Shown here piece by piece: positions 3,753 through 64,000 of a DNA stretch of 64,000 bases; positions within the stretch are counted from its first letter, which is position 1; each line of letters begins with the position of its first letter. Both the position numbers and the translations under genes were made by a program. Source of the DNA: Escherichia phage phiWec188; the sequence record LC739537.1. One strand, 5' to 3'. The notes below the pieces were generated by a model that was not told where the DNA came from, searched no databases, and saw only the letters and a list, made by a program, of their open reading frames with translations.

Positions 3753-4109
3753 ATGAGCAGTCTTGATCATAACATTTGTTACCAACCTCTCACTTGGATT
3801 GGTGAGGGTCATTATGCGCAACGTGTTATCGTCTGTGCTGCGAATAAGTATATTCTGAATAATGGTGAAGAGTTAATTATCCCTTGCGTTCGACATGCAA
3901 ATCCTGTACTATATGCACAGTTAAGCGTGTTGAAAGAAGCAGGTGCGATCAGCAAAACTTTGTGCACGCCAGATAATCAAGGTTTTATCGATCAGTATTA
4001 CAATTGGTGGAGTCGTGAGGATGCTTACATCATCGCGGAAAATGCTGACCAGATTGACCATGAGCGTAATGGTCACGACCATGAACTATTTAGCGAGGGA
4101 TTATACTAA
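3753..4109 (+). CDS. hypothetical protein (118 aa)
   Basis: internal ATG (MSSLDH...) of ORF 3708..4109 preceded by AAGGAGA. Confidence 0.5.
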   Translation: MSSLDHNICYQPLTWIGEGHYAQRVIVCAANKYILNNGEELIIPCVRHANPVLYAQLSVLKEAGAISKTLCTPDNQGFIDQYYNWWSREDAYIIAENADQIDHERNGHDHELFSEGLY

Positions 4110-4654
4110 TGTTTATTACAAGCGATTTGCATTTTATGCATAAACGTATTCGAGAGTTTGCTCCTGAATATCGTCCGTGGGAAGATATGGACCACATGAC
4201 AGAAGCCCTGATTGAAGCATGGAACAAATGTGCTACTACTCCTGGTGTTAAGATGTGGCATTTGGGCGACTTCTGTTTCGGGACTGAAGAAGATACCCGT
4301 AAGATTGCTTCCCGTCTCCAAGGAGATATCACTTATCTTGTTGGGAACCATGATTACAGCAAACACCGAGAAGTGCTTGCAGAGTATGGCGAAGTGAAGT
4401 ATTATGACGAAGTGAAATATCAGAAGCTGTTCTTCGTCTTAAGTCATTACCCTATTGCCTCCTGGAATAAACAGGGTCGCGGTAGTATTATGGTCCACGG
4501 GCATTCTCACGGATCTTTCCCTGATGAAGCCTACGGCAAGATGCTTGACGTTGGTTGGGATGCACATGGTAAGATTCTGCATTTTGATGAAGTTATTAAA
4601 ATGATGGAAAAGCGTGAAGTGATCACGGTAGACCATCACAAAATTATTCGATAG
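4109..4654 (+). CDS. calcineurin-like metallophosphoesterase / putative Ser-Thr protein phosphatase
   Basis: motifs D-x-H (SDLHF), GD (HLGDF), GNHD (LVGNHDY), GHxH (HGHSHG) typical of the metallophosphatase fold. Confidence 0.7.
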   Translation: MFITSDLHFMHKRIREFAPEYRPWEDMDHMTEALIEAWNKCATTPGVKMWHLGDFCFGTEEDTRKIASRLQGDITYLVGNHDYSKHREVLAEYGEVKYYDEVKYQKLFFVLSHYPIASWNKQGRGSIMVHGHSHGSFPDEAYGKMLDVGWDAHGKILHFDEVIKMMEKREVITVDHHKIIR

Positions 4655-21295: not shown

Positions 21296-22174
21296 ATGAA
21301 AGGTATTATTTTAGCGGGAGGAAGTGGAACCCGCCTACATCCTGTAACACGCAGTGTGAGCAAGCAATTGCTCCCTGTGTATGACAAACCTATGATTTAT
21401 TATCCTTTATCAGTCTTGATGTTGTCAGATATTAAGGATATCTTAATCATCACAACCCCAGGCGATCAGGAAGATTTTGAGTATCTTCTTGGAGATGGGT
21501 CTATGTTTGGAATAAAGATCACTTACGCAATGCAGTCTGAACCACGAGGTCTTGCAGATGCTTTCATCATCGGTAAAGATTTTATTGGGGAAGATTCTGT
21601 TGCTCTTATTTTAGGGGATAACTTGTTCTTCGGACAAAGTTTCGGAAAACTCCTTATCCAAGCCAGCGAAATGGTGGATGTTTGGGGTGGAGCTTGTATC
21701 TTCGGGTATCTGGTGAAAGATCCTGAACGATTCGGTGTTGTTGAGTTTGGAAGTAATCGCCAAGCTATCTCTATTGAAGAGAAACCGGAACATCCCAAAT
21801 CAGACTATGCAGTCACGGGTTTGTATTTCTATGACAACTCTGTTGTTCAACGTGCATTGGAAGTAACTCCTTCCGATCGTGGAGAACTGGAGATCACAGA
21901 TATCAATCGCAGCTACCTCGAAGACAGGAAGTTACAAGTGGAAGTTCTTGGAAGAGGATTCACTTGGTTGGATACAGGGACACACGCCAGTCTAATGGAA
22001 GCAGGTCAATTCGTGCAGACTATTGAGAACTGCCAAGGATTGAAGATTGCGTGCCTGGAAGAGATTGCTTTCAAAAAAGGGTGGATTTCTTTAGAGACTT
22101 TGGTGTATCATGGCAACTCATTGAAGAAAACAGAGTACGGGCAATATCTGTTAAAATTAGCGGAGGGTAAATGA
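21296..22174 (+). CDS. rmlA: glucose-1-phosphate thymidylyltransferase (292 aa)
   Basis: [16 protein letters not shown]...[18 protein letters not shown] signature of RmlA; TAAGGAGGG RBS. Confidence 0.9.
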
Positions 22175-42560: not shown

Positions 42561-42830
42561 TTACCAAGAAACATACATAGAGTAAACAAGATCATTACAG
42601 TCTGTCGAGAACGTAGCACTGCAACCTTGAGATCTTAATTTGTCACAAATCCCGCGTACAATCGAAGCTTGTAGTTCTTTACCTTGCGGTAGACCTAAAG
42701 CTTTCACTGGGTGTTGAATCTGTATGCTGTAGTAACCCTCTTCGGCTGCTGTTGTGATTAAGGTTTTTGCTCGTTGGATATACTCAAAGTTCACAGAGTC
42801 TGCCAAAGCGTGTAAAGAATATGCGTCCAT
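42561..42830 (-). CDS. hypothetical protein (89 aa)
   Basis: GAGGAGG RBS. Confidence 0.5.
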   Translation of the reverse strand: MDAYSLHALADSVNFEYIQRAKTLITTAAEEGYYSIQIQHPVKALGLPQGKELQASIVRGICDKLRSQGCSATFSTDCNDLVYSMYVSW

Positions 42831-42839
42831 GTTACCTCC

Positions 42840-43175
42840 TCAAGAACGATCGAGTTTCATTAAAAATACAATCATAGCTGCACGCAGGGGCTTATCGTCT
42901 CCACGGGACGGTACACCTTCTGTTTTCGCAAGCCAACCGCGAGGAAAACCATCTTCCCCTGTTACAGGACTGATACAAATCCTGTGTTTTACTATGATAG
43001 CCCAAGCATCTGCTGGATCATTGCAGTAATCATACCAAGTGTAATTGCCGTTGCAGTCATTTCCCACTGATCGTCCATCTGCATTGTGCGGATAACCTAA
43101 AGGCTTGACACCGTGGACTGCTGCAAACACACGCTTGTTGATTTCAAAATCACTCATTACTCCATATTCTGTCAT
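42840..43175 (-). CDS. NinX/DUF2591-like protein (111 aa)
   Basis: pattern ...FEINKRVFAA..G...DGRSVG...W.DYCNDPADAWAII...I...P resembles phage NinX family as I recall it. Confidence 0.35.
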   Translation of the reverse strand: MTEYGVMSDFEINKRVFAAVHGVKPLGYPHNADGRSVGNDCNGNYTWYDYCNDPADAWAIIVKHRICISPVTGEDGFPRGWLAKTEGVPSRGDDKPLRAAMIVFLMKLDRS

Positions 43176-43841: not shown

Positions 43842-44522
43842 CTATTTAATGTTCAGTTTGTTAAGCAGACGTTGAACCGTATAAGGGTGCCATGTGGTAC
43901 TGCCACGAACAGTTTCAATTTTCTCTTCAGTAAAGATCTCTGCGATTCGAGTCAGAGATGCTCCTGCTTTCCTCATTAACGTAACTTTATCACGAAGCTT
44001 CTCGGCATACAAGGTGCTTTTATCATTTTTTCGAGATTGTCTGTAATCTTTACGAGACTCTTTATATTTTGGAGATGCAGATCCTAAGAGAATACCTTTG
44101 CTCTTAGCTACTGCCAAACCTTTTTTGATACGATCTGCCATACCACGTACTTCCTGTTCTGCAAGGACAGATAGAAGCTGAATAACCATCTTGTCTGCAT
44201 CCGGCATGATCGCAATCTTAACGTCAATCATTTCCAAGAGGATTGCTACCGAGGCGTTGTTACGACCTAAACGGTCCACTTTAGCTACCAAAAGCGTTGC
44301 TCCTGTAGCTTTACACATCTCAACAGCCTTGACAAGTTCTTTACGTTGCTTCCAGTCGCCTTTACCTGAATAAAATTCAGAAAACTCTCCGATCACTTCA
44401 GCCTCCGGCACAGATTCCAAGAAATAACGGATATCGTTTTCCTGGCTCTGCATACCATACTGGGCTTCACCTTTCTTCTGTTTAGACAAACGGCTGTAAA
44501 CAACAAACTTTTTCATGATCAA
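43842..44522 (-). CDS. serine recombinase (resolvase/invertase family) (226 aa)
   Basis: N-terminal catalytic domain VVYSRLSKQKKG (YxRxS with Ser nucleophile), DRLGRN motif, C-terminal HTH; GAGGAG RBS. Confidence 0.8.
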   Translation of the reverse strand: MIMKKFVVYSRLSKQKKGEAQYGMQSQENDIRYFLESVPEAEVIGEFSEFYSGKGDWKQRKELVKAVEMCKATGATLLVAKVDRLGRNNASVAILLEMIDVKIAIMPDADKMVIQLLSVLAEQEVRGMADRIKKGLAVAKSKGILLGSASPKYKESRKDYRQSRKNDKSTLYAEKLRDKVTLMRKAGASLTRIAEIFTEEKIETVRGSTTWHPYTVQRLLNKLNIK

Positions 44523-44984: not shown

Positions 44985-45312
44985 GCTGCACCTCCTCCAG
45001 ACGGTCATACACCCAAGCAAGACGATCGAAGTTTTTGTGTTGGGTGCCGGACTTCTTCTCAATCCAATAACAAGGAATCCAACCTGACAGATCCCACTCG
45101 CCATCGAACGGATAGTTCCATTCTAAACCTTCCGCTTCAAACTGCTCTACCATTTCATCAGAGAGGGAAAGATACAAATCTTGGTCTTCCCCGCAATACA
45201 CTTCCACTGCATGACACAAACCGCAAGCTTTGATGTTTTCGTTCGGATCTTGGCTCATAGCCTGATCCAACCACCACTCATAAAATTCCAGTAAAGCTTC
45301 ACTTGACCTCAT
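44968..45312 (-). CDS. family-A small protein, paralog 3 of 9 (114 aa)
   Basis: LLEFYEWWLDQAM...CGLC...YPFDG...H.N.DRLAWVYDRL. Confidence 0.5.
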   Translation of the reverse strand: MRSSEALLEFYEWWLDQAMSQDPNENIKACGLCHAVEVYCGEDQDLYLSLSDEMVEQFEAEGLEWNYPFDGEWDLSGWIPCYWIEKKSGTQHKNFDRLAWVYDRLEEVQHGEEE

Positions 45313-45685
45313 TTTCTTCCCCTCCCCCTTTTCCAATAAGCGGCGAAGCCGCGATCATCGACTTATAGACAACTTCGGCTGTTCGGGTTAGCCCCGTCCA
45401 GTCCTTCGCTGCCTCCAACATTTCTGGGGTAGGCTCTTTCGGGACCAAGACATACCCTTCTGGGATACACATTCCACTCGCTTTCTTTTCAGCTTCTTCC
45501 GACATAACTTGCCACACTCCGTAGCTGCAATTCTCGAACAAACAATAGAGTTCAGATCCTTCATCATCCACGACAATGAAACAGTTCTCATCTGCTACTT
45601 TGGCGTTGTAAATCCGACCTATGGTCAAATAGTCTCGGACATTAATAAACTTAGAGGCAAGAAACTTCACACGAATGTTTTTCAT
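45299..45685 (-). CDS. hypothetical protein (128 aa)
   Basis: GGAG RBS. Confidence 0.5.
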   Translation of the reverse strand: MKNIRVKFLASKFINVRDYLTIGRIYNAKVADENCFIVVDDEGSELYCLFENCSYGVWQVMSEEAEKKASGMCIPEGYVLVPKEPTPEMLEAAKDWTGLTRTAEVVYKSMIAASPLIGKGGGEENEVK

Positions 45686-57301: not shown

Positions 57302-58882
57302 GATAATCTCCTCTCTTGGTTTCATGACAAACATCGTAACTCTCAACGAGGAACATCTTACGATCAATCCTCGGCAATTACAATTCATTTATCATTGGTA
57401 TTCCCTATCAATTATTCCATATATACCTGTTATTTTTGACACCCCTTTGGTCAAATATTAATCGGCAAAATATCTGGGGGGAGAGATTATTTCGATACCC
57501 TCTGTTCCTGCGATTTATCGGCAAGAATATCATCGGCAAAGAGACAGAAAAGCCTTTGGTAGCAAGGATTTATGGCGAGTACGTCAGGACTGCTGAACGC
57601 GAATTTTCCGGCCCCTCCACTTCTGCGCGCCGGAATCTTCAAATATCAATGAGAATAATTATCATTATCATTCGCATTCAATAACTTAGGCGATCTTTTC
57701 CCCTGCTATAAGGTTGGGCCTAACTTAAGCACTACTTTTTAAACAATCCTTTATCAATCAACTACTTAACAACCTAAACATATGATTACTACGGTGTAAA
57801 GGTGCCGCCCATAACAGACTACCTATAAAATAAATGAGAATGATTATTATTCAGACAATTCTTACAACAAATCGACCAATAAATCAAGATTTTTCTGATT
57901 TTATTTACGTTTAAGAGAACGTGCTCAACATATCCGCCATAGGCGGCTATCTTTCCCCCGCAAACATTAAGCCTTTATCTTTCATCTTTCTGTATATCTG
58001 TACACTATGCAACCTGTCGCTATTCGCTCATGTTGCTACGTGCTAATCCTTCACCATGCTAATGATGATCACACTGAACGATAGTGATAACTCATGTAAT
58101 AATTACATTGATTATTATATTACGCTTAACTATTCTTACATACAATGCTAATAATAAGCCAGCGTAATTAGTGTAAGCGTAATACGCTTGCAATAATTGC
58201 AAGCTACATAATCACAAGAAATAACTATCACCGATAGTTATGATTGTGGGGGTGTAGTTGGCTTATTATTAGCTCGCTACGTGTCCGGCGTAGCGTGCTA
58301 ATGATGAGGCTTGGAATGATTCATTTTACAATTATTACAGTCTTCACTATTTCGGCAATAGGCACTATTTTACTAATAGTTGTTATTTTAATGATTTCAT
58401 TTGTTATCGTTAGTTAGTTGGTTGTTTTGTCGTGTTATCGTTATCTTGCTTAGTATTCATCATGGTTTGATTGTTTGTCGTTATCAATCATCTTTCTATT
58501 ATTCCTTTGATTATGATTAGTTTGCTTATTGTTTTAGGTTGTTGGTTGGTTAGTTGTTGCGAACTATTATCAACATTATAGTTATGCACTTATATTGCAT
58601 AGATACGCAAGGTTAGATGATAATGGTTATCATTGCACTGGAAAGGAGGAAAACAGCCTTTTTCGGTTGTTTGTTGTTGGTTGTTGATCGATTTTAACCG
58701 CTCTAAATAGCTCTCTAACAGCCTGTTGCCCTGGGAGGTATGGTTATTCGTTTGCTGGTTGATTAGCTCGATACCGCGATTTATTCATTTTTGTTCTGTG
58801 TCGGTTTTTCATAGGCGGAAGCTATCAACATTATTTGGACAAAAAGAAAGGGCGCTTAGTGCGCCCCTTGTTTTGTTGTCGA
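57302..58882. other. about 1.6 kb non-coding region: AT-rich, palindromes and direct repeats, followed by a GT-skewed low-complexity tract
   Basis: no ORF of 60 aa or more on the gene-bearing minus strand; palindromes near 58175-58204 (AAGCGTAATACGCTT, GCTTGCAATAATTGCAAGC) and 58221-58241 (ATAACTATCACCGATAGTTAT); repeated ATCGGCAA and GCTAATGATGA words; T/G-rich iteron-like tract about 58380-58700. Confidence 0.6.
58849..58873 (-). terminator. minus-strand terminator (GGGGCGCACTAAGCGCCC + TTTCTTT)
   Basis: GC hairpin + U-tract immediately downstream of gene 58883..59302. Confidence 0.5.
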
Positions 58883-59302
58883 TTATAAAGCTTCATAGAT
58901 TGAGTATATCCGGTTCGCCAGGTCATTACGAAAGCGGAATTTTTCATCACGTTTAATCATCAGATCCTTAAAACCGCATTCTTTCAATGCTTCGTTAACT
59001 TTACTGCGGCATACTTTCATATTGTCCTGCGCGTCACCAATAAACTTATTGCTATGATGCATTGCTTTGATCTCTTCTTCCAGGACCAGGGCAACTACAC
59101 GGATCGGATCAAGCTGATACGCGGTAACATCCATGCGGCATTGTAAACGGCTTTTAACGTCTGCCACCGGATATACTGCAACCTCTTCCCCGTCAACGTT
59201 CACGATAACCAGTTTACCATCAATTTCGAAGCCTTTAGCGGCGCTACCGTGACAAAAAGCGTTGTCGAAGGAGTAAGCTGGATTATTTGATTTAATGTTC
59301 AT
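58883..59302 (-). CDS. hypothetical protein (139 aa)
   Basis: long ORF; AAAGGA 9 nt upstream; own promoter upstream. Confidence 0.55.
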   Translation of the reverse strand: MNIKSNNPAYSFDNAFCHGSAAKGFEIDGKLVIVNVDGEEVAVYPVADVKSRLQCRMDVTAYQLDPIRVVALVLEEEIKAMHHSNKFIGDAQDNMKVCRSKVNEALKECGFKDLMIKRDEKFRFRNDLANRIYSIYEAL

Positions 59303-59344
59303 GGTGTTGTCCTTTGTTTCGTTTCGTTGTTTGCTGCCAGTGAG

Positions 59345-59380
59345 TTAAATATAATATAACGCCGATCCCCTGTCAATAGG
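59345..59380 (-). promoter_or_regulatory. promoter TTGACA-N17-TATATT flanked by inverted repeat CCCCT...AGGGG
   Basis: hexamers on reverse complement upstream of 59302 gene; coordinates approximate. Confidence 0.45.
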
Positions 59381-59409
59381 GGATAGCGCATTATTTACAT
59401 TTCTTTACG

Positions 59410-59433
59410 TTAAAGGGCGCTTAGTGCGCCCTT
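59410..59433 (-). terminator. minus-strand terminator-like hairpin (AGGGCGCACTAAGCGCCCTTT)
   Basis: same hairpin sequence as at 58.85 kb, downstream of gene 59442..59810. Confidence 0.45.
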
Positions 59434-59441
59434 GTACAATC

Positions 59442-59810
59442 TTACTTTGTGCGGTTGTAAACGTTATCGCGTTCAACCATCAAGGCAAGGCGGATCAGTT
59501 GATCAGTTGTATCGCGTAAGCTGTCAGGCCATGTTTTATTGTTCCAGCTATCTAAATTTGATTGAATATAGGTTTCAATGGCTTGATCCATATTGTCGAA
59601 CAAGTTTGCCTCCAGGCTCTCGGCTGTTTCACACTGGAAAGCATCAGCGACACTATTAATCAATAAGCAAGCCAGTAGATCAGCGTTGCGCCAATTTTTA
59701 CGGATAGTTTCATCTTTCAGATAACCAACGAGATCAACCTTTGCGCCAGTGGTGGACGTTGCGATCACTTCTTGCGCTTTTTCAACTGCTTTAATTGCTG
59801 ATTTGCTCAT
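59442..59810 (-). CDS. hypothetical protein (122 aa)
   Basis: AAGAGGAAAAGAAG RBS. Confidence 0.55.
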   Translation of the reverse strand: MSKSAIKAVEKAQEVIATSTTGAKVDLVGYLKDETIRKNWRNADLLACLLINSVADAFQCETAESLEANLFDNMDQAIETYIQSNLDSWNNKTWPDSLRDTTDQLIRLALMVERDNVYNRTK

Positions 59811-59825
59811 CTTCTTTTCCTCTTT

Positions 59826-59890
59826 GTGGGCTTGCTGTATTGCTCGCCCTACGCAATAACTATAAGTTAACAGGGTGTATAAAGCAAGCT
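59826..59890 (-). promoter_or_regulatory. promoter-leader cassette (TTGCTT-N17-TATAGT, then ...CGTAGGGCGAGC hairpin)
   Basis: member of repeated cassette family; coordinates approximate. Confidence 0.35.
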
Positions 59891-60122
59891 ATTTTTTATA
59901 AAATTTTTCTGCTGTGATATTCTTCCCTGTAGGCTTAACCGCTTGCAAGATCTTATCATGCGCCGGACGTCCAAAGGAATAAGATCCATAAACGGTAAAC
60001 CAATAATCCCCGTCAGGTTGAACGGTTACGGCGGCGTAGGGTGTACCTCTCTCATTATCACCGATAAAGTGTGAAACATTGCCGTTAACGTTCGATTTAG
60101 TGCTTTTAATTTGTCCGATCAT
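59889..60122 (-). CDS. hypothetical protein (77 aa)
   Basis: weak RBS; own promoter cassette upstream. Confidence 0.5.
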   Translation of the reverse strand: MIGQIKSTKSNVNGNVSHFIGDNERGTPYAAVTVQPDGDYWFTVYGSYSFGRPAHDKILQAVKPTGKNITAEKFYKK

Positions 60123-60139
60123 GGTGTTATTCCTATATT

Positions 60140-60202
60140 AGACGGGAAACATTCCCGCCCTACGTGATAAATAATAATATAAGCGTGATCCGGTGTCAAT
60201 AG
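60140..60202 (-). promoter_or_regulatory. promoter-leader cassette (TTGACA-N17-TATTAT, CACGTAGGGCGGGAA-TGT-TTCCCG hairpin)
   Basis: conserved GATCCGGTGTCAATAG upstream element and CCCTACGTGATAAAT leader on + strand. Confidence 0.45.
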
Positions 60203-60373
60203 GTAGAATTGTAAAGATTTGATAGTTTATCTCTTTGATGTTTTGTTGTTTGATAGGTGTTAGCTATCAATATATAGCGGGGTCGTCCGGTGATTACCTC
60301 CCCCGTTGCCAGTGCCGCCCGTTCAATAAGCATAACAAAAAACAGGACAAAAACAAGCCCTGTTTTGTAAAGA

Positions 60374-60577
60374 TTAGATGATCTGCATATCCTCCACGAT
60401 AATTTCTAATTTCCAAACAAGATGATCTAAGCTCCCTGATAAAAATGATTCCGATACATAACCGCCATCGGACACCGTAGCAAGGATCTCGCCATTTGCT
60501 TGCTCTTTGATTTGAACATCCAGGCGGTTAGCCTTTGCTTTATTCAGGACGGCGATCAGGCGGTTAGCTGTAGTCAT
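60374..60577 (-). CDS. hypothetical protein (67 aa)
   Basis: GGAAGGAAAAACACC RBS at internal ATG. Confidence 0.5.
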   Translation of the reverse strand: MTTANRLIAVLNKAKANRLDVQIKEQANGEILATVSDGGYVSESFLSGSLDHLVWKLEIIVEDMQII

Positions 60578-60597
60578 GGTGTTTTTCCTTCCAGTTG

Positions 60598-60660
60598 TGA
60601 GCGGCACCATTGCCGCCCTACGAAATACATCTTACACTATCCGGCACATCATGCAAGCTA
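60598..60660 (-). promoter_or_regulatory. promoter-leader cassette (TTGCAT-N16-TAAGAT, CGTAGGGCGGCA-ATGG-TGCCGC hairpin)
   Basis: member of repeated cassette family. Confidence 0.4.
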
Positions 60661-60662
60661 TT

Positions 60663-60854
60663 TTATACTTCGTCACCTATATAATCAGATCTGTTCTTCT
60701 CTGTCATACGCTTAAGCAATTCCTGCATATGGCTTATAGCTTGCAATGTGTCTTCTTCCAGGCTTGAATCCACATAATCAGGATCATTCTTTACCTTGCT
60801 ATGGTTGTGATAACGCAACGCTGCTAATACCTTTCTAACTTGTTCTGCATTCAT
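60663..60854 (-). CDS. hypothetical protein (63 aa)
   Basis: TAAGGAGTAATAAAA RBS. Confidence 0.5.
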   Translation of the reverse strand: MNAEQVRKVLAALRYHNHSKVKNDPDYVDSSLEEDTLQAISHMQELLKRMTEKNRSDYIGDEV

Positions 60855-60866
60855 TTTTATTACTCC

Positions 60867-61001
60867 TTAAAACCAGGTGCCAACCGTTTCCAATAGGTCA
60901 CTGACTACCAGAACAACACCGATTAGCACATATTTAACCAGGAAGGGGATTAGCGCCAGCGTTGCTACTATGATCCCCATTGTCATGATTACCTTTCTCA
61001 T
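60867..61001 (-). CDS. small membrane ORF (44 aa)
   Basis: ATG overlaps stop of upstream gene (ATGA); two hydrophobic segments. Confidence 0.35.
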   Translation of the reverse strand: MRKVIMTMGIIVATLALIPFLVKYVLIGVVLVVSDLLETVGTWF

Positions 61002-61288
61002 TGTTGGCGGTTTACGTAAGCTTTACCGTTTACGGTCATCGGTATGGCCTCAAGGTCTGGATCTTCCTTAAGGTCGCGTGCAAGCTCACCGCACCGGACA
61101 CCCTCGAATCCGTGGTATTCTGTTTCCCCGTCCTTAAAAGTTTTAGCGGCAAGGCATAGGCGATAATTAACCCCGATCCGGTTTACTGCGTTGATATCGG
61201 TTAACGTGATCGATTCAGGCAAATCGTTAGCCATTACAGGCGCGTTAATACCAACAACCAGGGCAACTACTGCGATCATCTTTTTCAT
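60998..61288 (-). CDS. secreted protein with signal peptide (96 aa)
   Basis: MKKMIAVVALVVGINAPVMA|ND signal peptide; GGAAGAGGATAG RBS. Confidence 0.55.
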   Translation of the reverse strand: MKKMIAVVALVVGINAPVMANDLPESITLTDINAVNRIGVNYRLCLAAKTFKDGETEYHGFEGVRCGELARDLKEDPDLEAIPMTVNGKAYVNRQQ

Positions 61289-61339
61289 GTTGTCTATCCT
61301 CTTCCTATTGCGTTTAATGGGGCGTTGCCGCCCCGCTGA

Positions 61340-61564
61340 TTAATTACGTTGGCTGTTTTCTACTATCGACTTTAAAATAAAGTCAGTTACGCCCTTTGTG
61401 TCATCCGGCGGGAAGTTATCAGCATAGCACCAGGCATAAGCGCCATCAACTGGAAGCGGGAAGATATGCACGCTTAGATCCCCATAATCATATTCAGTTA
61501 TTTCTACCTTGAGATCCGACAATTCAGCCAGTTTAATAGCTTGTAACATTCTAACAATACTCAT
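61340..61564 (-). CDS. hypothetical protein (74 aa)
   Basis: AGAAAGGAAAAG RBS; GGGCGGCAACGCCCC hairpin in 5' leader. Confidence 0.5.
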   Translation of the reverse strand: MSIVRMLQAIKLAELSDLKVEITEYDYGDLSVHIFPLPVDGAYAWCYADNFPPDDTKGVTDFILKSIVENSQRN

Positions 61565-61603
61565 AATCTTTTCCTTTCTGATAGTGGGGCGTTGCCGCCC
61601 TTT

Positions 61604-61849
61604 TTAGAATTGACGCGTTACGCGATCGGTGTTTTCTTCCTTTACAACCTTACCTGTTGCTACCATTTCGCTGATTTTTTCATCGTTGATAATGTTGTTA
61701 TTCTCTTTGATCCAGGTCCAACGATTACCCATCAAAGTATTCCCTTTTAACGCATAATACCAAATGTTGTTAGGCATTTTGATCCAAGCCATACCGCGCG
61801 AATTTTTCGGGTCGTGGTAGATATTGCCAATTTTAGTTGTCTGGTACAT
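61604..61849 (-). CDS. hypothetical protein (81 aa)
   Basis: AAAGGTAAAACATC RBS. Confidence 0.5.
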   Translation of the reverse strand: MYQTTKIGNIYHDPKNSRGMAWIKMPNNIWYYALKGNTLMGNRWTWIKENNNIINDEKISEMVATGKVVKEENTDRVTRQF

Positions 61850-61869
61850 GATGTTTTACCTTTTTCCAG

Positions 61870-61932
61870 GAAGCGGGAACTATTCCCGCCCTACGTGGTA
61901 AATATTATCATATTGACGATCCGTGTCAATAG
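61870..61932 (-). promoter_or_regulatory. promoter-leader cassette (TTGACA-N16-TAATAT, CACGTAGGGCGGGAA-TAG-TTCCCGC hairpin)
   Basis: conserved GATCCGTGTCAATAG and CCCTACGTGGTAAATATTATCA elements. Confidence 0.45.
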
Positions 61933-61949
61933 TTTTTTGGAGTTTTTAC

Positions 61950-62351
61950 TTACAGGCCCAAGATAGCCCGTGCATCGTTACGCTGTTTAGTCTCAGTCAT
62001 GATCATATTTAAAATGGTCGGATTAATATAACCTTTCTCCATAGCTTCGCGGACTGGTACATCATAAGCACCGAAACCAGTGCGAACGATACGCACATCA
62101 TTCAGATTAGTGTTATAGATCCCGCCTAAATCAACCGACTGGAAAACGGCATCAACACTATATTCAGTGTTGCCATCGTTGACGTTTTCGATCTCAATGT
62201 TGCGAGACACCGCCCAACGTTTACAGCCTCCAATCAGGTAGCATTGTTCCTTTGTCAGATTACCATTGGAAACCGCATATTTCAGGGCTTCAGCGCCGAA
62301 AGTTTTAGCAATGTTAACAACGTCAGTATAAGAAAGGATCGTAATGTTCAT
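61950..62351 (-). CDS. hypothetical protein (133 aa)
   Basis: GGAG RBS; own promoter cassette. Confidence 0.55.
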   Translation of the reverse strand: MNITILSYTDVVNIAKTFGAEALKYAVSNGNLTKEQCYLIGGCKRWAVSRNIEIENVNDGNTEYSVDAVFQSVDLGGIYNTNLNDVRIVRTGFGAYDVPVREAMEKGYINPTILNMIMTETKQRNDARAILGL

Positions 62352-62369
62352 GGTTATAACTCCAAATGG

Positions 62370-62435
62370 TGAGCGGCACCATTGCCGCCCTACGTGGTAA
62401 ATATTATCACACTGGTGATCTGTGTCAATACTATT
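62370..62435 (-). promoter_or_regulatory. promoter-leader cassette (TTGACA-N16-TAATAT with TG extension, CACGTAGGGCGGCA-ATGG-TGCCGC hairpin)
   Basis: near-identical to cassette at 61.9 kb. Confidence 0.45.
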
Positions 62436-62453
62436 TATTCAATATAAATAAAA

Positions 62454-62669
62454 TTATGATGTGCGCTCAATTATGATAATGGTCTGTGGGATCTCGTTTT
62501 CTGCCACTATCAGGGCTTTTTTCTGCGTGATAGTTATTTTAACACGTTGCAACGATGCGGTAAAGTCTTTCATTTCGTTATGTGCGGACTTGCTGCAATG
62601 CCAGATCTCAGGCTTACCAACTTGTAAGCCGCGTAAAAATTCCGTTTTGCCTGCTTTGTTCGTGAACAT
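62454..62669 (-). CDS. hypothetical protein (71 aa)
   Basis: AAGGTGAAACAA RBS at ATG. Confidence 0.45.
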   Translation of the reverse strand: MFTNKAGKTEFLRGLQVGKPEIWHCSKSAHNEMKDFTASLQRVKITITQKKALIVAENEIPQTIIIIERTS

Positions 62670-62679
62670 TTGTTTCACC

Positions 62680-62784
62680 TTAACCGATACCGTGAGAAGA
62701 TAGGATCATATTAGCCATAGTTGCAACCACTCCAACCGATAACGCCAGGCCAACTATTGCAACCGTGAAAATTTTCTCTAACAT
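62680..62784 (-). CDS. small membrane peptide (34 aa)
   Basis: AAAGAGGGTAGCATC RBS; single TM helix; ORF-track N-terminal extension would overlap promoter cassette. Confidence 0.3.
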   Translation of the reverse strand: MLEKIFTVAIVGLALSVGVVATMANMILSSHGIG

Positions 62785-62867
62785 GATGCTACCCTCTTTA
62801 ATGGGCGTTGCCTTATTGCCCCGCCCTACGTGATACACTTTACCAGAAAACAAAATACTGTCAAGAT

Positions 62868-63005
62868 TTATTTTACTTCCCAAACGGAAAATTCACTACC
62901 TGGCGGGATCATTCTTTTAATCTTGTTTGCTGCTGCTACCAGGTCCACGGCTTGCACTGTAATAATATAACCAATTGTCGAGGCTGTTGCATTGAAAGTT
63001 TTCAT
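62868..63005 (-). CDS. small ORF (45 aa)
   Basis: GGTGAGGGTAATATA RBS; own cassette upstream. Confidence 0.35.
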   Translation of the reverse strand: MKTFNATASTIGYIITVQAVDLVAAANKIKRMIPPGSEFSVWEVK

Positions 63006-63021
63006 TATATTACCCTCACCA

Positions 63022-63075
63022 TCGGCGGCACCATTGCCGCCCTACAAGATGAATACTACGCGCTTACTTTGCTGT
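63022..63075 (-). promoter_or_regulatory. promoter-leader cassette (TTGACA-N17-TAGTAT, TTGTAGGGCGGCA-ATGG-TGCCGCC hairpin)
   Basis: member of repeated cassette family. Confidence 0.4.
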
Positions 63076-63246
63076 TGTCAACAAGGGGCGAAAAAACTTT
63101 TTGATCTGGCTTGCTGTTAGGCGCATATCTGCTTTGAGCGTTGCCAGGCGATAAGCCTTACCCTTAATCAGTTTATGGTGTCCGGTGCCGTTGCCGATGA
63201 TAACATCAATTTCACACAATACACGGGAAGAATCAATCTTTTTCAT
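63064..63246 (-). CDS. hypothetical protein (60 aa)
   Basis: AGAAAGGTAACAAG RBS; GGGGCGACAAGCGCCCC hairpin in leader. Confidence 0.4.
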   Translation of the reverse strand: MKKIDSSRVLCEIDVIIGNGTGHHKLIKGKAYRLATLKADMRLTASQIKKFFRPLLTTAK

Positions 63247-63294
63247 CTTGTTACCTTTCTTGTTATGGGGCGCTTGTCGCCCCTGGTTTATGGT

Positions 63295-63480
63295 TTATTT
63301 GACTATGTGACGATCATTATATTCAGTGTAAAACTCGCAACCATCGTCACGACTATCAAGTTTAACAATGTAACCAGTTTGATAACGTTCAATAGATACC
63401 ATTGCATAAAACTTACCATTCAGGATATTTCTAACCAGATCGCCTTTTACCAATTCTTTCGTTTTCTTGTAAGTAGTCAT
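63295..63480 (-). CDS. hypothetical protein (61 aa)
   Basis: internal ATG; cassette upstream. Confidence 0.45.
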   Translation of the reverse strand: MTTYKKTKELVKGDLVRNILNGKFYAMVSIERYQTGYIVKLDSRDDGCEFYTEYNDRHIVK

Positions 63481-63497
63481 GATGTTTTCTCTTCTGT

Positions 63498-63560
63498 TAG
63501 GCGGGGCGCTTGTCGCCCCTATGTGATACATCTTATCAGGTTGATTCAGCTTGTCAAACT
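63498..63560 (-). promoter_or_regulatory. promoter-leader cassette (TTGACA-N16-TAAGAT, CACATAGGGGCGACAAGCGCCCC hairpin)
   Basis: member of repeated cassette family. Confidence 0.4.
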
Positions 63561-63738
63561 ATTTGTTAGCCGGATTATATGCCAGGACCGCGCCACTTGC
63601 TTTCACGCTTTCCGCTTCATAGTTGCGCAGATCGTTTTCTGTAAGATTGAGCGCGATCACTTCCTCGATCTCAATACCAGTGGCAAGGGCGATCTCTTTA
63701 ATGATGTTTGATGATCTGATAACGTTTACTGTTTTCAT
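63559..63738 (-). CDS. hypothetical protein (59 aa)
   Basis: AAGGTG RBS at internal ATG. Confidence 0.45.
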   Translation of the reverse strand: MKTVNVIRSSNIIKEIALATGIEIEEVIALNLTENDLRNYEAESVKASGAVLAYNPANK

Positions 63739-63748
63739 GGTGTGCACC

Positions 63749-63868
63749 TTATAAGATGATTGATAAGATAGTGATAACGAAAGCGATAACACCAACGGCG
63801 ATCGTAGTCTTACGCCCTTCGGATACTGCCGGATTCTCTACCGTGTATTCTACTGTGTATTTGTTCAT
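63749..63868 (-). CDS. small membrane ORF (39 aa)
   Basis: GAGGATAACACA RBS; C-terminal TM helix. Confidence 0.35.
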   Translation of the reverse strand: MNKYTVEYTVENPAVSEGRKTTIAVGVIAFVITILSIIL

Positions 63869-63884
63869 TGTGTTATCCTCTCGC

Positions 63885-63945
63885 TTGCTTTGGGAACTAT
63901 TCCCGCCGCCCTATGAATTAAATATACACTATCTCAAAATGATTG
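63885..63945 (-). promoter_or_regulatory. promoter-leader cassette (TTGCAA-N16-TATATT, CATAGGGCGGCGGGAA-TAG-TTCCC hairpin)
   Basis: member of repeated cassette family at window end. Confidence 0.35.
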
Positions 63946-64000
63946 CAAACCTTTTTCTAAATTATTTTTATGCAGTAAATAAACCATCGTTTACAACGGC

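Follow-up and report, generated by a model that had tools for sequence, protein, structure and literature searches.

Promoter–leader–hairpin cassettes in front of small genes of Escherichia phage phiWec188 and related phages

Repeated units in a small-gene array

Small minus-strand genes fill the end of a 64,000-nt stretch of Escherichia phage phiWec188 (LC739537.1; hereafter, the window), and many of them are preceded by a repeated unit in which a promoter is followed by a conserved leader and a hairpin close to the predicted 5' end of the message. By sequence match, the window is assigned to the genus Phapecoctavirus (phAPEC8-like myoviruses of the Stephanstirmvirinae, with genomes of ~150 kb). 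The best match of its last 5 kb is phiWec190 (99.6%), the other matches also being Phapecoctavirus genomes. When the whole window is mapped, phiWec190 aligns in the opposite orientation with 99.95–100% identity and a single gap of ~800 bp at window position 63.5 kb. Annotations of the array region consist only of a series of small hypothetical proteins. The open reading frames (ORFs) of the array (17 of 17) belong to PHROG families without known function or to no PHROG, and the sole label among them is that of a 39-aa membrane protein.

Between 59.8 and 64.0 kb on the minus strand, we find nine full units, one promoter-only unit and three hairpin-only units. A full unit contains, in order, an A-tract, TTGACA or a close variant, a spacer of 16–17 nt, (TGn)TAAnAT, kTATCAC, RTAGGGCGG, a hairpin, an A-rich linker, a Shine–Dalgarno (SD) element and ATG. 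The −10 elements of the window units take the forms TAAGAT, TAATAT and TATTAT, often with an extended TGn, and the ATG lies 40–46 nt past the predicted start. The initial annotation had described a repeated promoter, conserved leader and 5' hairpin in front of at least eight individual small genes; the sequence bears this out, with nine full units now counted. We placed +1 at the R of RTAGGGCGG, which lies 8 nt after the −10 element and is preceded by a pyrimidine, the usual preference in E. coli. The features are as follows (window positions).

63866–63961, minus: cassette 1, with TTTGCA (−35), TATATT (−10), box TTCATAGGGCGG, predicted +1 63914, hairpin 63887–63909 and ATG 63868 of the 39-aa membrane protein gene (PHROG 10979)
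63478–63569, minus: cassette 2 (chimeric), with TTGACA, TGaTAAGAT, box CACATAGGGGCG, +1 63522, hairpin GGGGCG-ACAAG-CGCCCC (63503–63519) and ATG 63480
63267–63283, minus: hairpin-only half cassette GGGGCGACAAGCGCCCC, 20 nt upstream of SD/ATG 63246
63003–63092, minus: cassette 3, with TTGACA, TAGTAT, box CTTGTAGGGCGG, +1 63045, hairpin GGCGGCA-AUGG-UGCCGCC (63024–63041) and ATG 63005 of a 45-aa gene
62782–62876, minus: cassette 4, with TTGACA, TGgTAAAGT, box CACGTAGGGCGG, +1 62829, two-tier hairpin 62803–62826 and ATG 62784
62349–62440, minus: cassette 5, with TATTGACACAGATC, TGaTAATAT, box CACGTAGGGCGG, +1 62393, hairpin 62371–62390 and ATG 62351
61847–61941, minus: cassette 6, with CTATTGACACGGATC, TGaTAATAT, box CACGTAGGGCGG, +1 61894, hairpin GCGGGAA-UAG-UUCCCGC (61867–61893) and ATG 61849
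61586–61600, minus: hairpin-only half cassette GGGCG-GCAA-CGCCC, upstream of ATG 61564
61319–61334, minus: hairpin-only half cassette GGGGCG-GCAA-CGCCCC, upstream of ATG 61288
60575–60668, minus: cassette 7, with CTTGCA, TGTAAGAT, box TTCGTAGGGCGG, +1 60621, hairpin 60597–60621 (able to pair the 5'-terminal G) and ATG 60577
60339–60366, minus: canonical intrinsic terminator within the array, with a 10-bp stem and a T-run
60120–60210, minus: cassette 8, with CTATTGACACCGGATC, TATTAT, box CACGTAGGGCGG, +1 60163, hairpin 60140–60160 and ATG 60122 of a 77-aa gene
59808–59899, minus: cassette 9, with CTTGCT, TTATAG, box TGCGTAGGGCGA, +1 59852, two-tier hairpin 59826–59852 and ATG 59810
59415–59431, minus: hairpin GGGCGCACTAAGCGCCC-TTT, preceding the promoter-only unit
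59300–59385, minus: promoter-only unit, with CTATTGACAGGGGATC, TATATT and ATG 59302, lacking box and hairpin
58847–58869, minus: canonical intrinsic terminator closing the array, with a 9-bp stem and a T-run

The sequence GTAGGGCG occurs seven times in the window, each time on the minus strand between 59845 and 63045. Shuffled sequences predict 0.55 copies, and none of 100 shuffles reached seven; relaxing the search to RTAGGGSSR recovers all nine units. The window end truncates the array. In phiWec190, 19–20 copies of the motif extend over 11 kb (122.5–133.6 kb), one strand throughout, and its 150.7-kb genome holds no motif cluster beyond the array. Four of the array genes show translational coupling to the preceding gene.

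No tRNA gene was found in the window. In phiWec190, two TTGACA promoters of the tRNA cluster are followed by GTAGGGCG (43974–44025, inside tRNA-Ser, and 45286–45330, just before tRNA-Gly), and these sites make up two of the four phiWec190 copies of TAGGGCG outside the array. We considered them as cassettes and rejected them, the spacing to the −10 element being inconsistent and different from that of the cassettes; they probably reflect chance. A lone cassette-like unit, TTGACA...TAAGAT-GTATCAC-ATGAGGCGGGGAGTGGTTCCCCGC, lies at ~103400–103442 (minus) of phiWec190, on the other strand and upstream of a terC-type gene cluster. Within the window array, a GC-rich element, GGGCGGCACTGGCAACGGGGGAGGTAATCACCGGACGACCCCGC, occupies 60215–60335 (minus) between the internal terminator and cassette 8 and has no Rfam match; a similar sequence in phage rV5, GGGGGGAGACAATCACCGGGGGGTG, precedes the promoter upstream of 12112.

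Conservation of the start-site box and hairpin

To describe the units as a family, we drew on the window and on five Phapecoctavirus genomes and assembled 77 unique cassettes, a set that includes orthologs and is thus non-independent, with ~20–30 independent paralogs. TAGGG is present in all 77. Positions −13 to +8 carry 1–2 bits each, compared with ~0 bits per position in the −35/−10 spacer. Hence a contiguous block from −13 to +9 is conserved although the spacers are randomised, and from this randomisation we take the units to be old. Leader length is tight (40–49 nt), and an AT-rich, UP-like A-tract lies upstream of the −35 element.

The initial annotation had also pointed to −35 elements in a GATC-containing context, which is indeed seen in four window promoters (CTATTGACA..GGATC; TTGACA(N1-4)GATC), and had raised the possibility that Dam methylation of this site modulates the promoters. 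The wider pattern makes such sensitivity highly improbable. The four promoters form one paralogous subfamily, and GATC falls between the −35 and −10 elements in only 14 of the 77 unique promoters, which is the chance rate. GATC is itself common, with 393 sites in 64 kb (6.1 per kb; Markov expectation 371) and 9.7 per kb in the array region.

A second possibility is that the 22-nt block, TAAGATGTATCACGTAGGGCGG, is the promoter of a phage single-subunit RNA polymerase. It is conserved contiguously from −13 to +9, has CAC-N-TA-GGG at the start, and loosely resembles T7-type promoters (TAATACGACTCACTATAGGGAGA). The units nonetheless have a consensus −35 element at the correct spacing and an UP-like tract. 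No RNA polymerase is encoded by the ten largest phiWec190 ORFs (family A DNA polymerase in the case of the 865-aa protein), which makes a phage-polymerase promoter very unlikely. In addition, the same module heads the pre-early operon of phage T5 (see below), which is transcribed by the host RNA polymerase (PMC7472727). Together these observations leave this explanation with practically no weight.

The box leads directly into a hairpin. In 77 of 77 cassettes, the first paired base lies between +1 and +6, most often at +4; if transcription starts at the predicted R, 0–5 unpaired nucleotides (mostly 0 or 3) precede the stem. The stems are GC-rich, 6–10 bp long, and of ~8 types. Predicted folding energies range from −7.8 to −15.1 kcal/mol for the window cassettes, and for the full set they average −13.5 kcal/mol, with a mean z score of −3.4 versus shuffled sequences. 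The base of the stem, GGGCGG/CCGCYC, is constant in sequence. Above it, positions +10 to +12 alternate among C-G, G-C and A-U with compensation on the other arm, and the upper stem covaries. In the commonest type, the flanking CUCAC can pair with the 5'-terminal GU as well. These pairs were tabulated from minimum-free-energy folds of each sequence, as a MAFFT alignment of 33 hairpin regions misaligned the 3' arms, which differ in loop and stem length. Sequences downstream of the array promoters fold with a mean of −12.8 kcal/mol, compared to −3.8 kcal/mol for other sigma-70-like matches in the genome. An Rfam covariance-model scan of 57–64 kb (E<1) returned only a chance miRNA match at the terminator. 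One hairpin, GCGGGAA-TAG-TTCCCGC(T) at 61867–61893 and in related cassettes, appears to resemble the acceptor stem, positions 8–10 and discriminator base of E. coli tRNA-Gly(GCC), which may be coincidental.

GC-rich, intergenic hairpins of this kind, some of them in hairpin-only units located between genes, could act as terminators, attenuators or insulators against transcription from the upstream cassette, with each gene expressed mainly from its own promoter. There is precedent in the promoter-early stem-loop (PeSL) cassettes of T4-like phages, whose stem-loops cut read-through as strongly as rrnB T1 (PMC2839356). Several features of the array render this explanation unlikely. The cassette hairpins all lack a trailing T-run, a feature that the array's canonical terminators have; the minus-strand terminator scan called only two sites (58847–58869 and 60339–60366). 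The hairpin lies downstream of its own start, and an efficient terminator at +4 to +25 would abolish the unit's own transcript and silence its gene. The PeSL stem-loop sits mostly in or upstream of the promoter, whereas the hairpins of the 77 cassettes are start-proximal, usually at +4. We also found no alternative pairing suggestive of attenuation in the leaders. Because the hairpin is always within the 5' end of the transcript and lacks a T-run, a stabiliser or insulator role is favoured over a terminator or attenuator role. Of the functions that the initial annotation had offered for a shared control element, that of an mRNA 5' stabiliser fits best, with the hairpin near the predicted 5' end in every cassette, while those of an attenuator or terminator lack support.

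Recombination and spread across phage families

Four cassettes are chimeric, in that the left side is identical to one parent and the right side to another, with the switch in the box, hairpin or linker. Cassette 2 derives from one phiWec190 cassette in its promoter and hairpin and from another, 800 bp downstream, in its SD element and gene. The junction (window 63476–63528) corresponds to a deletion of ~800 bp and three small genes relative to phiWec190, bounded by two cassettes and covering 21296–22095 of the phiWec190 locus compared, and it is the only large difference between the window and that genome. One formal caveat, which concerns this case alone, is assembly collapse; the shared stretch is ~50 bp, below typical read length. 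In phiWec179, the 45-aa gene between cassettes 3 and 4 has been lost, with the crossover in GTAGGGCGG, and in Ro121c4YLVW the 77-aa gene between cassettes 8 and 9 has been lost through recombination in the box. The fourth chimera joins two Schickermooser cassettes. Because the crossover points vary, these events fit homologous rather than site-specific recombination. Judging from the junctions, the ~45-bp conserved block is a homologous-recombination crossover site at which small ORFans are deleted, inserted and exchanged.

Sequence comparison also identifies the hairpin-only units as half cassettes. For the gene at 63064–63246, the phiWec179 ortholog retains a TTGACA-N17-TATCTT promoter before a hairpin identical to that at 63267–63283. 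In Schickermooser, the hairpin equivalent to 61319–61334 is itself partly deleted and has lost its 5' arm.

Given recombination within the block, one might ask whether its conservation reflects any function beyond the promoter. Recent duplication and gene conversion among paralogous cassettes (concerted evolution) could keep copies alike, and the identical hairpin GGCGGCAATGGTGCCGC in many cassettes would be expected under this scenario. We regard it as decidedly improbable in view of the randomised spacers, which mark the units as old, and of the compensatory changes that keep the hairpin. The architecture is, moreover, common to three genera, and a single-copy module is kept in unrelated phage families, where there is no paralog to act as conversion donor.

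Evidence on these last points comes from relatives at increasing distance. In phi92 (Justusliebigvirus), an array of the same architecture lies before a non-coding stretch and the right terminal repeat, with a looser box (TAAGGCGG, TAGAGCGG, AAAGCGGG). rV5 (Vequintavirinae) has promoter–hairpin–SD units and hairpin-only units, all lacking the box. A hairpin near the start is therefore likely to be the older and more general feature, since it is kept where the box is looser or absent. From phi92 and rV5, the exact box seemed to be a refinement at the level of Phapecoctavirus, an idea overtaken by the occurrences described next.

An exact-pattern scan of IMG/VR gave chance matches as well as matches in a promoter context. 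In T5-like genomes, the terminal repeat contains TTGCGC-N17-TATTAT-TTATCAC-GTAGGGCGGCAATGACG, which heads the leftward pre-early operon made up of small ORFs, A2, A1 and dmp. In T5 itself (NC_005859, 2033–2110, minus), a module of the type TATTAT-TTATCTC/TTATCAC-GTAGGGCGGCAATGACG lies upstream of T5.009, where the record annotates no promoter. Two hairpins follow the module in T5 and in its T5-like counterpart (chee24 3950–4115). One or two copies are also present in 42-kb siphoviruses resembling Sortsne, sortkaff and IME279, and further viral contigs of 30–152 kb carry the module too. Outside the family, the hairpin starts at +1 to +7 in every case, mostly at +4, with GGGC...GCCC or longer pairing. 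In two viral contigs of 30–49 kb, the ORF behind the module shares 47% protein identity with a cassette-borne gene of the Phapecoctavirus array, and the box is identical. Retention of the box despite this divergence indicates horizontal transfer of the promoter–leader–ORFan unit with purifying selection on the box. The hosts scanned lack the module: querying 5,426 complete E. coli genomes with the 55-nt cassette core gave no hit, and a GTDB scan (one genome per bacterial species) yielded only chance-looking matches and two phage-like contigs binned into metagenome-assembled genomes.

This pattern brings up the question of whether the box is specifically read. The box (kTATCAC|RTAGGGCGG), with or without the base of the hairpin, may be the site of a dedicated factor that acts on DNA or RNA polymerase at about −7 to +9, or on the RNA 5' end. 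Such a factor, of phage or host origin, could single out one temporal class of promoters for coordinated boosting or shut-off, or it could tag the messages to be processed or translationally controlled. The near-invariance of the box exceeds what a hairpin needs, and the box has remained exact while the adjoining coding sequence drifted to 47% protein identity. In the T5 pre-early operon, whose class is known for shut-off (A1 annotation), it occupies the first promoter. T5 provides a precedent of a kind, in that the discriminator is the main difference between its temporal promoter classes and discriminator contact is affected by a T5 protein that binds RNA polymerase (PMC7472727). These points must be set against the degenerate box of phi92 and its absence from rV5, in both of which the hairpin is still in place. 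Nor is a common phage reader evident, as neither phiWec190 nor the other module-bearing loci encode homologs of the T5-like pre-early proteins, and the array ORFs are all of unknown function. Overall, we consider a dedicated factor doubtful, though it has some points in its favor. If the box is specifically read, the lack of a shared protein makes a host component likelier than a common phage protein.

Several observations concern the genomes rather than the cassettes. After the last terminator of the array lies an AT-rich stretch of ~1.4 kb (window ~57400–58850) with no convincing ORF and many short repeats of the AAC/CAA type. It matches the non-coding right end of phi92 in patches, among them a portion of the 343-bp terminal repeat (window 57596–57688), and the physical end of the phage genome probably lies here. 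A 148-bp segment of the window (42764–42911) matches both ends of the phiWec190 record, which thus has a terminal overlap, probably from circular assembly. The tetranucleotide CTAG is absent from the window (0 versus ~101 expected from a Markov estimate). GGCC (28 versus 84), CCGG (45 versus 79) and GTAC (134 versus 227) are also depleted, which suggests strong counter-selection, for example against CTAG-containing restriction sites.

Proposed early-gene cassettes and known systems

We interpret the units as sigma-70 early-gene cassettes that carry a 5'-terminal stabilising hairpin and also serve as recombination substrates, an interpretation to which we assign a probability of roughly 0.55. 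Each cassette would be self-contained and read by the host sigma-70 RNA polymerase through its UP-like A-tract, consensus −35 element, often extended −10 element, and discriminator/start-site box. With a start at the predicted R, the message would begin 5'-RUA and continue into the hairpin, an A-rich linker of ~15–20 nt, the SD element and ATG. The purine-rich start and 5'-terminal hairpin would make for a productive and stable leader, in which the hairpin keeps RppH and RNase E off the 5' end and insulates the ribosome-binding site. In read-through transcripts, the same hairpins may form intercistronic barriers. Independently of this reading, the sequence comparisons directly show crossovers in the ~45-bp block, and the promoter–leader module, with or without its ORFan, also moves whole between unrelated phages.

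Five points weigh against this interpretation. Our search of the literature on this phage group found no transcript data, and hence the start site, the early expression and any influence on mRNA stability are predicted from sequence. The cassette set is non-independent, as described above. Several convincing promoters elsewhere in the genome have short leaders with no hairpin, from which it follows that the hairpin is not a general requirement. The hairpin alone gives no explanation for the near-invariance of R-U-A and GGGCGG. Finally, in T4-like phages, G/C stems without obvious U-tracts terminated transcription in reporter assays (PMC2839356).

The invariance of the box is addressed by a further, more tentative proposal, which we think possible but would not favor. 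Here, the −10/start/hairpin module TAnnnT-kTATCAC-RTAGGGCGG would be a phage-specific mobile 'immediate-early leader' found in unrelated virulent enterobacterial phages (the Stephanstirmvirinae arrays, the T5 pre-early head and Sortsne-like siphoviruses), its exact sequence being kept for a common host reader or as a handle for early shut-off. Candidate readers in the host would be RNA polymerase itself (start choice or promoter escape) or an enzyme acting on the RNA 5' end, for instance RppH, RNase E, or one that caps or decaps.

Beyond what the initial annotation described, the units are hot-spots of recombination for gene gain and loss, the array continues past the window end, and the module is present in unrelated phage families. 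The concept of a mobile promoter/stem-loop cassette, previously tied to T4-like phages, can with these results be applied to the rV5/phi92/phAPEC8 group, many members of which are therapy candidates; the cassettes explain the mosaic early ORFan region of that group. For T5, the module indicates that a promoter missing from the annotation heads the pre-early operon. The ~45-nt leader is a possible portable part for strong expression. The start-site box, exact across unrelated phages and absent from host genomes, offers a 9-nt handle on immediate-early transcript control, and the exact retention of R-U-A-G-G-G-C-G-G across phage families is the part most worth experiment.

Among described systems, the PeSL cassettes (Arbiol et al. 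2010, PMC2839356; Comeau et al. 2014, PMC4122927) come closest, and the present units are their functional counterpart, though built differently; we found no description of the cassette or motif in the literature searched on rV5-like phages or on T5 pre-early promoters. Like PeSLs, the present units are intergenic repeats of ~90–100 bp in which a strong sigma-70-like promoter, with an AT-rich tract upstream, is combined with a GC stem-loop, an SD element and a start codon. Both are concentrated among the small ORFans of a hyperplastic region, both differ between close relatives by indels and replacements with crossovers inside the motif, and both include degraded 'half' elements. Apart from lineage (Stephanstirmvirinae here, T4-like myoviruses for PeSLs), they differ in the hairpin. 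The PeSL stem-loop varies in position (for the most part it overlaps the hexamers or lies between or upstream of them) and has been assigned a terminator role. In the present units, it lies within the 5' end of the unit's own transcript, mostly at +4, with no T-run, and follows a near-invariant start-site box that PeSLs lack.

In E. coli, mRNAs are stabilised by 5'-terminal stem-loops preceded by no more than 2–4 unpaired nucleotides, as in the ompA leader and the phage T7 gene 10 leader. The cassette leaders would resemble these stabilisers in having a stable hairpin 0–4 nt from the 5' end (for the cassettes, the predicted one), a single-stranded ribosome-binding region and a stem that may vary in sequence while its pairing is maintained. 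Given the invariant place of the hairpin inside the transcript 5' end, we consider the 5' stem-loop stabiliser a better functional analogue than the PeSL. The ompA and gene 10 leaders belong to single genes with measured effects on half-life, whereas the cassettes form a multi-copy family of putative stabilisers in which the base of the hairpin and the 5' trinucleotide are conserved.

A third comparison is with the promoter classes of T5 (Klimuk et al. 2020, PMC7472727), which are likewise sigma-70-dependent and in which a conserved sequence between the −10 element and +1/+2 marks the temporal class. The motif of the T5 early class is ATATT; that of the present units is kTATCAC|RTAGGGCGG, and it extends into the transcript.

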